Positions 6,653-6,815 of a DNA stretch of 9,630 nt are shown here, piece after piece. Each line of letters starts with the position of its first letter. Within the stretch, counting starts at the first letter, position 1. The DNA comes from Candidatus Odinarchaeota archaeon (lineage in GTDB: Archaea; Asgardarchaeota; Odinarchaeia; Odinarchaeales; Odinarchaeaceae), in NCBI GenBank assembly GCA_038826135.1, contig JAWBON010000044.1:1-9630 (forward strand), read 5' to 3'. The notes beneath the pieces are model-generated. The model made no database searches and was not told the DNA's origin. It was given only the letters and a program-made list of their open reading frames with translations. A program made the position numbers and the translations under genes.

Positions 6653-6727
6653 AGTAGATTCAGTTGATGAGATTAAGGTTAACTGATATTGATGAAGTTA
6701 AGGCATTTGTTTGAAACTGAGTCTACT
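6653..6727 (+). ncRNA. Box C/D guide sRNA (sRNA-1); D guide predicted to target LSU rRNA at the E. coli A1938 equivalent
   Basis: C box TTGATGA 6664-6670; 12-nt spacer; D' CTGA 6683-6686; C' TTGATGA 6689-6695; D TTGA 6711-6714 (or CTGA 6717-6720). Terminal complementarity AGTAGATTCAGTT (6653-6665) / AACTGAGTCTACT (6715-6727), one G.U pair. Guide AAGGCATTTG (6700-6709) is the exact complement of CAAAUGCCUU in TACK-type 23S rRNA. Confidence 0.85.
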
Positions 6728-6750
6728 CTGAAAATCTTTTACAAATTTTT

Positions 6751-6815
6751 TCATCAGATTTCTTGAAGTTTCCTCATAGCTTAAGCTCAGGAGACCGTCG
6801 AATCATCATCTGATT
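6751..6815 (-). ncRNA. Box C/D guide sRNA (sRNA-2); D' guide predicted to target LSU rRNA at the E. coli 2590 equivalent
   Basis: Minus strand reads aaUCAg AUGAUGA (C, 6809-6803) UUCGACGGUCUC (12-nt guide) CUGA (D', 6790-6787) gcuuaagcu AUGAGGA (C', 6777-6771) AACUUCAAGAAAU (13-nt guide) CUGA (D, 6757-6754) UGA. The terminal UCA/UGA stem with a 3-nt bulge gives canonical K-turn geometry. CGACGGUCU is complementary to the conserved AGACCGUCG of the peptidyl-transferase centre. Confidence 0.92.

Follow-up and report, generated by a model that had tools for sequence, protein, structure and literature searches.

What is encoded in the gap between purA and thiN of an Odinarchaeum-type archaeon? 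The window analyzed here, a 9,630-nt stretch that constitutes contig JAWBON010000044.1 of the Candidatus Odinarchaeota assembly GCA_038826135.1, contains in this gap two convergent four-box C/D cassettes, sRNA-1 on the plus strand and sRNA-2 on the minus strand. The explanation that we favor, with a probability of about 0.8, is that they are two independently transcribed, convergent genes for box C/D small RNAs (sRNAs), each with one conserved guide for 2′-O-methylation of 23S rRNA. No known organisms are more closely related to eukaryotes than Asgard archaea. On this explanation, the prediction is that an Odinarchaeum modifies two functionally central positions of the large-subunit rRNA, both of which are almost fully methylated in yeast and methylated also in humans.

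Two box C/D cassettes and their predicted targets in 23S rRNA

The boxes of both cassettes can be read directly (Table 1), and a pattern search agrees with the earlier claim of two complete C-D′-C′-D cassettes on opposite strands. With perfect boxes and archaeal spacings, the four-box pattern has these two occurrences and no others in the 1.26-Mb genome, and none in 20 shuffled genomes. A slightly different strict pattern recovers sRNA-2 together with another candidate, on contig C41. In sRNA-2, the terminal C and D boxes (AUGAUGA and CUGA) are closed by a 3-bp UCA/UGA stem and should be able to form a kink-turn (K-turn). The internal D′/C′ boxes of the two cassettes, CUGA-UAU-UGAUGA in sRNA-1 and CUGA-hairpin-UGAGGA in sRNA-2, are invariant in the five sequences compared below, save for one column of a C′ box. 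The spacers of sRNA-2 measure 12 and 13 nt and the D′ spacer of sRNA-1 12 nt; the D spacer of sRNA-1 measures 15 nt if counted to an internal UUGA and 21 nt if counted to a distal CUGA.

Both target strings named in the original prediction, CAAAUGCCUU and AGACCGUCG, occur in the host's own 23S rRNA, the sole copy of which lies on contig C25 (14397-17346, minus strand), where the contig end cuts it off about 158 nt from its 5′ end. Read from UUGA, the sRNA-1 guide forms 10 Watson–Crick pairs with ...CCAAAUGCCUUG and, as had been proposed, one additional G.U pair, with the third A facing position 5. Nine Watson–Crick pairs join the sRNA-2 D′ guide to UAGACCGUCG, and position 5 of this guide, the G opposite plus-strand position 6795, selects the first C, which is the nucleotide predicted from the N+5 rule. 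Complementarity to the host 23S rRNA of at least 9 bp that covers the fifth nucleotide from the box is found for one guide in each RNA. Random genomic 12-mers reach runs over position 5 of at least 10 with P = 0.011 and of at least 9 with P = 0.053.

Alignment of the archaeal 23S rRNA to E. coli K-12 rrlH identifies the selected nucleotides as the equivalents of A1938 and of position 2590 (where E. coli has A and the archaeon has C); they are nucleotides 2078 and 2728 in the 23S rRNA of a complete genome of the same genus. E. coli reads GAAAUUCC and the archaeon CAAAUGCC at the same place (GCGAAAUUCC and GCCAAAUGCC, respectively), so that both the numbering of the original prediction and its remark that the target is not the bacterial one are borne out. 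The names given to the eukaryotic sites also agree with a published table, in which yeast Am2281 (snR13) is equivalent to human Am3764 (U15A/B) and yeast Cm2959 (snR73) to human Cm4506 (U35A/B) (PMC8817022; PMC5199042). Both yeast sites are more than 90% methylated (PMC5199042), and helices 68-71 and 90-93 are described in PMC7994747 as hotspots of archaeal methylation. Because these stretches of rRNA are conserved, the eukaryotic target sites and the nucleotides selected here are equivalent positions.

The remaining guide of each RNA, D′ in sRNA-1 and D in sRNA-2, has no convincing target in a search set made up of the partial host 23S rRNA, the 16S and 23S rRNAs of the complete congener, and 31 tRNAs, the tests against 16S rRNA resting on the congener copy. 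The best matches comprise seven Watson–Crick pairs for sRNA-1 D′ and six for sRNA-2 D.

The conservation of the cassettes, which the original prediction had pointed to as a check, was followed in five sequences: the host, three genomes of the same genus that retain the whole gap at 83-85% identity, and a metagenome relative (L161), the one extra sequence recovered by a metagenome scan for further Odin-type copies. The cassettes are kept in all of them. There is no variable column in the sRNA-1 D guide (0/12), its UUGA (0/4), the sRNA-2 D′ guide (0/12), or the boxes of sRNA-2 (0). Variable columns number 7/13 in the sRNA-1 D′ spacer, 6/14 in the sRNA-2 D guide, and 19/53, 16/26, and 13/22 in three flanking intergenic stretches. 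Within the segment 6777-6786 of sRNA-2, all three variable columns fall in the four central letters of the motif GC-NNNN-GC. This pattern is the mark of a pair of functional RNAs, each having a single constrained guide, and not that of a generally conserved regulatory region.

We propose that each sRNA would assemble with L7Ae, Nop5, and fibrillarin and, through its one conserved guide, would place a 2′-O-methyl group on 23S rRNA five nucleotides from the box. Acting from UUGA, the D guide of sRNA-1 would direct modification of the A that matches E. coli A1938 and lies in the H70/H71 region (yeast Am2281, human Am3764). The D′ guide of sRNA-2 would direct modification of the C equivalent to E. 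coli 2590, which lies between U2585 and A2602, near the peptidyl-transferase centre (yeast Cm2959, human Cm4506). The second guide of each RNA would be a fast-evolving orphan. All three proteins are encoded on contig C20, where the genes for fibrillarin (PF01269, 304.6 bits) and Nop5 (PF01798, Nop domain, 224.8 bits) are adjacent and an L7Ae-family protein (PF01248, 103.9 bits) is also found.

Distribution in Asgard archaea and features of the locus

Among 400 Asgard genomes, the sRNA-1 guide in its box context (GATGA-N(1-8)-AAGGCATTTG-N(0-4)-TGA) is present in 40, and the reversed control gives one match; the guide matches are, in context, full C/D cassettes. In the Baldr-type family f15 and in family f7, the guide occupies the D position, with a 12-nt spacer and AUGA as the D box; in family f12 it occupies the D′ position, with a 15-nt spacer and the box GUGA. 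In genome G150 it is again a D guide, with a 15-nt spacer, the box CUGA, and a GGAC/GUCC stem. The 15-nt spacer of sRNA-1 thus recurs in G150 and family f12, and also in the C41 candidate. In nearly all Asgard homologues, the box begins exactly 1 nt after the G of the guide, the exception being genomes G029 and G047, where it begins 1 nt earlier. In these two genomes (family f4; loci L100 and L101), GUGA directly follows AAGGCAUUUG, so that the N+5 rule would select the neighboring U (the equivalent of E. coli U1939) and not the equivalent of A1938.

The sRNA-2 guide is found in real cassettes in genomes G027, G032, G140, and G011 and in the f15 genomes, at about eight loci. Most of its phylum-wide matches were rejected as false, being coding Asp-rich repeats (GAT GAT GAC GGT CTN). 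Such Asp-Asp-Asp-Gly-Leu tandem repeats, of the calcium-binding type and present in many Asgard genomes (for example at L134-L137, L142, and L148-L155), look, to a pattern search, like a C box with the sRNA-2 guide behind it.

The order of the locus is also shared. In families f15 and f7, the start of purA has a divergent sRNA-1 homologue beside it, with an sRNA-2 homologue next to and convergent on the latter, and the loci with this order include metagenome-assembled genomes (MAGs) of Ca. Baldrarchaeota. As the same block is present in the Odin family, f15, and f7, the purA/sRNA-1/sRNA-2 arrangement is older than the genus and common to at least three Asgard families.

The window itself, contig C44, belongs to an assembly of 1.26 Mb in 105 contigs with 38% G+C and 93% completeness. 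Its closest PurA relatives, at 90-92% identity, are from MAGs labeled Candidatus Odinarchaeia or Odinarchaeota, and the host is an Odinarchaeum-type Asgard archaeon. The gap extends from the start of purA to the end of thiN and holds both cassettes, the features of which are collected in Table 1.

Table 1. Coordinates of the purA–thiN gap and of the two C/D cassettes, in window positions; invariance refers to the five Odinarchaeum-type sequences.
Feature	Position	Strand	Remarks
purA	5554-6585	-	Bounds the gap on the left; Adenylsucc_synt, E = 3e-79
AT-rich TATA-like stretch	6608-6630		Between purA start (6585) and sRNA-1; core kept in all relatives
TATA-like element upstream of sRNA-1	6620-6630	+	Conserved; about 26 nt upstream of presumed 5′ end
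sRNA-1 gene	6653-6727	+	About 75 nt; presumed ends from terminal helix; conserved in five sequences; fold z-score -3.4
sRNA-1 terminal helix, 5′ strand	6653-6665	+	Pairs with 6715-6727 (13 bp); in the minimum-free-energy structure
sRNA-1 C box UGAUGA	6665-6670	+	Invariant; reads UUGAUGA with the preceding U
sRNA-1 D′ spacer	6671-6682	+	12 nt; apparent orphan guide
sRNA-1 D′ box CUGA	6683-6686	+	Invariant
sRNA-1 D′/C′ loop UAU	between 6686 and 6690	+	3 nt; two columns vary
sRNA-1 C′ box UGAUGA	6690-6695	+	One column varies; D′-loop-C′ is an internal K-loop-type motif
sRNA-1 D spacer	6696-6710	+	15 nt to UUGA (21 nt to CUGA)
sRNA-1 D guide	6699-6710	+	6700-6709 complementary to 23S CAAAUGCCUU, plus one G.U; U6706 opposite the selected A
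sRNA-1 UUGA	6711-6714	+	Most likely the functional D box; followed by AA, then CUGA
sRNA-1 CUGA	6717-6720	+	Inside terminal helix; pseudo-D or alternative D box; pairs with UCAG 6660-6663
sRNA-2 gene	6815-6752	-	Canonical box C/D, about 60 nt; presumed ends; conserved in five sequences
sRNA-2 C box AUGAUGA	6809-6803	-	Invariant
sRNA-2 D′ guide UUCGACGGUCUC	6802-6791	-	12 nt; nine Watson–Crick pairs with 23S AGACCGUCG
sRNA-2 D′ box CUGA	6790-6787	-	Invariant
sRNA-2 GC-NNNN-GC mini-hairpin	6786-6777	-	Read from sequence
sRNA-2 C′ box UGAGGA	6776-6771	-	Invariant
sRNA-2 D guide	6770-6758	-	13 nt; orphan
sRNA-2 D box CUGA	6757-6754	-	Invariant
TATA-like element upstream of sRNA-2	6836-6846 (conserved 6833-6849)	-	About 26 nt upstream of presumed 5′ end
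thiN	6884-7462	-	Bounds the gap on the right; ThiN, E = 1e-47

In the AT-rich stretch next to purA, at a presumed distance of about 26 nt from either start, we propose two promoters placed back to back, one for purA on the minus strand and one for sRNA-1 on the plus strand. On the other side of the pair, the TATA-like element upstream of sRNA-2 may be its promoter; only 4 of the 20 columns from 6831 to 6850 vary, compared with 13/22 in the adjoining flank. The 25 nt between the 3′ ends of the two sRNAs are filled by T-runs on both strands, which could serve as terminators. In two raw-read metatranscriptomes of the same study, no read was found on the stretch in the 12% of each run that was covered, a result with no bearing on expression. 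One sequencing run contains the stretch in two read-sized contigs and is probably of DNA.

The C41 candidate mentioned above (about 10046-10105 of that host contig, plus strand) would be a third box C/D RNA, with a GGC/GCC terminal stem, the C box GUGAUGA, the D′ box UUGA, the C′ box AGAUGA, and the D box CUGA. Its 12-nt D′ guide forms 10 Watson–Crick pairs with 16S rRNA (position 129 of the congener 16S), and its 15-nt D spacer forms eight Watson–Crick pairs in a 10-bp run with 23S rRNA. No stop-free frame of at least 60 amino acids overlaps it.

Elsewhere in the window, an open reading frame (ORF) at 319-1281 (plus strand) has the Top6A/Spo11 Toprim domain alone (PF21180, E = 4e-19). A 119-amino-acid ORF at 8608-8967 (plus strand), with an AIR-synthase-related gene on one side and an ERCC4/XPF-type nuclease on the other, matches with its N-terminus PF06677, the Sjogren's syndrome/scleroderma autoantigen p27 domain (E = 5e-16). 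The complete congener (G002) is a single contig of 1,418,269 bp and carries an archaeal RNase P RNA (L095 7366-7722, 178.9 bits) about 2 kb downstream of its 16S-23S operon.

The D box of sRNA-1 and alternative explanations

For sRNA-1, the N+5 rule holds when it is counted from the internal UUGA, as the original prediction had tacitly done, and fails from the terminal CUGA, relative to which the guide is 6 nt out of register. No column of UUGA varies in the five sequences, and the box keeps the ancestral register: in alignments it falls on the D box of SNORD15 and on the NUGA box that Asgard and crenarchaeal homologues carry 1 nt after the G of the guide (again with the exception of G029 and G047). 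UUGA recurs in the same position in the Asgard lineage G157 and serves the C41 candidate as its D′ box. The distal CUGA is kept in four of the five sequences and reads CUGG in L161, a change that would ruin a D box and retains the pairing with U6660. From these comparisons, UUGA is most likely the functional D box of sRNA-1.

The predicted fold of free sRNA-1 places CUGA inside a 13-bp terminal helix (z = -3.4). All 65 cells of this helix in the five sequences are paired, and its three variable pairs are one-sided changes (U-A to U.G or A-U to G.U) that keep the pairing. A predicted inner helix of 6 bp (6679-6684/6696-6701), in which the tail of the D′ spacer (UUAA) pairs with the extra 3 nt of the 15-nt spacer, is invariant in the five sequences and therefore uninformative either way.

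Several observations weigh against the explanation by two methylation guide genes. At gathering thresholds, an Rfam search of the window gives no match to any family, and no 16S rRNA of the host is present anywhere in its assembly. Genome-wide, antisense rRNA 9-mers accompanied by loose boxes number 64, against 82 in the control, so that complementarity alone would prove nothing; this loose scan, not being enriched over its control, was dropped as a way of counting sRNAs. The sRNA-1 cassette in particular departs from the archaeal norm, with a spacer of 15 nt instead of 12 and UUGA as its D box. Its predicted 13-bp helix runs directly into the tandem G.A pairs (G6666.A6714, A6667.G6713) and lacks the canonical 3-nt bulge of a K-turn, and a covariation test of its helices in the five sequences shows no compensatory change and gives them weak support. 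The choice of CUGA would produce a bulge of 6 nt, and neither candidate box yields the canonical one.

The consensus form of CUGA raises the question of whether this box, together with a 7-bp stem (6653-6659/6721-6727), forms the K-turn of sRNA-1. The spacer would then be 21 nt long and the rRNA duplex would lie 7 nt from the box; A1938 would not be methylated, or the RNA would be mainly an rRNA-folding chaperone. The terminal stem directly after CUGA, the retention of this box in most of the sequences, and the Rfam sR2 model, which aligns its D box to it, speak for such an arrangement. We nevertheless consider it unlikely, given the CUGG of L161, the 6-nt instead of 3-nt bulge that it requires, and the box 1 nt after the guide in homologues that include SNORD15 and the crenarchaeal Sac-sR125 and IHOsR109. 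A guide read off the distal CUGA was rejected, as the 12-mer beside this box has G.U-rich matches only, with a best run of six Watson–Crick pairs. There is, by our estimate, only a slim chance that the RNAs pair with pre-rRNA as folding chaperones without methylating it, or that the conserved guides have another primary target. A chaperone role of archaeal C/D sRNAs is discussed in PMC7994747, but the N+5 register is strictly kept from Asgard archaea to Crenarchaeota and in the eukaryotic consensus, and such strict spacing is a requirement of methylation, not of pairing alone; the eukaryotic sites, too, are almost fully methylated (PMC5199042). It is very unlikely that the boxes are chance motifs of an AT-rich promoter and terminator region that holds no RNA gene. 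The promoter of purA and the terminator of thiN must indeed sit in the gap, and the failure of any Rfam match to reach threshold would fit. The lack of cassettes in shuffled genomes, the invariance of boxes and guides next to variable intergenic bases, and the position of the pair beside purA in other Asgard classes, with similarity limited to boxes and guides, all speak against it.

Within the favored explanation of two guide RNA genes, sRNA-1 could tentatively be seen as a derived C/D RNA, a view that we hold to be possible and no likelier than that. The 13-bp helix would have swallowed a former or decoy CUGA, UUGA would work without the 3-nt bulge, and the 5′ end of the 15-nt spacer would pair with the tail of a decaying D′ guide. 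Such an RNA, long-stemmed and in effect single-guide, would resemble eukaryotic snoRNAs more than the compact, symmetrical RNAs of archaea. Its locus, with two guides and linked to purA, would be ancient and older than the divergence of Odin- and Baldr-type Asgard lineages. The unusual arrangement of its D box may serve as a probe of how strict the K-turn and spacer rules are.

Relation to guide RNAs of Crenarchaeota and eukaryotes

Additional file 1 of Dennis et al. (2015, PMC4644070) contains Sac-sR125, IHOsR109, and IHOsR27, which are C/D box sRNAs detected by RNA-seq in Sulfolobus acidocaldarius or Ignicoccus hospitalis. Our comparison concerns the sequence strings given in that file, independently of the authors' target assignments. 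Sac-sR125 and IHOsR109 have a D guide A/G-AAGGCAUUUGU with an immediate D box (CAGA or CUGA), which matches the sRNA-1 guide and its N+5 register from UUGA; in the file, the former ends in ...UGAUGA-AAAGGCAUUUGU-CAGA and the latter in ...GAGGAG-AAGGCAUUUGU-CUGA. They differ from sRNA-1 in their 12-nt spacers, in having no second CUGA and no 13-bp terminal helix, in an unrelated other guide, and in coming from a different phylum. IHOsR27 starts with GAUGA-UCGAACGACGGUCUC-CUGA, and its D′ guide (...ACGACGGUCUC, then CUGA) is identical over 11 nt to, and in register with, that of sRNA-2. IHOsR27 has an unrelated D guide and a degenerate D box, and the genome positions in the PMC4644070 file place no sRNA-1 homologue next to it.

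Among the Rfam models, the best for sRNA-2 is the Sulfolobus sR3 (RF01133), which aligns over the full length with the same box layout (24.3 bits, E = 5e-5, gathering threshold 41). We rejected sR3 as the family of sRNA-2, since the score is below threshold and the consensus of the D′ guide differs; the target of sR3 is probably a different one. The scores of the eukaryotic models are likewise below gathering, at 14.4 versus 75 bits for SNORD15 and 14 versus 36 bits for SNORD35. Two gene annotations missed by Rfam-based pipelines, together with one conserved syntenic marker, are a modest practical gain of this analysis.

The original prediction had described the pair as possible unannotated archaeal counterparts of conserved eukaryotic snoRNAs. 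The part of this description that concerns guide and register stands, while the cassettes cannot be called unknown in kind, as their guides are published for S. acidocaldarius and I. hospitalis. Common descent is likewise not demonstrable from about 11 nt: these are dictated by the conserved target, and homology to the eukaryotic snoRNAs cannot be told from convergence. In the literature searched, we found no catalogue of Asgard C/D guide RNAs. The guides themselves were already known from Sulfolobus and Ignicoccus, and what is modestly new is the purA-linked convergent pair and the non-canonical sRNA-1 with its UUGA and long helix. That the guides are common to Crenarchaeota and eukaryotic snoRNAs supports the view that the sites, and perhaps the guides, predate eukaryotes.

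The likeness to the eukaryotic RNAs is confined to the guide cores and the register of the box. The SNORD15 consensus (..GAGGCAUUUGU-CUGA) aligns to AAGGCAUUUGU-UUGA of sRNA-1, and the SNORD35 consensus (CGAUGGUCUU-CaGA) to CGACGGUCUC-CUGA of sRNA-2, in each case with the box in the same register. In all else, SNORD15 (U15, snR13) and SNORD35 (U35, snR73) are unlike sRNA-1 and sRNA-2, being longer and differently organized. Judged by their guides and boxes, sRNA-1 and sRNA-2 belong, as Asgard representatives, to guide families known from Crenarchaeota, and in function they would correspond to U15/snR13 and U35/snR73, respectively.

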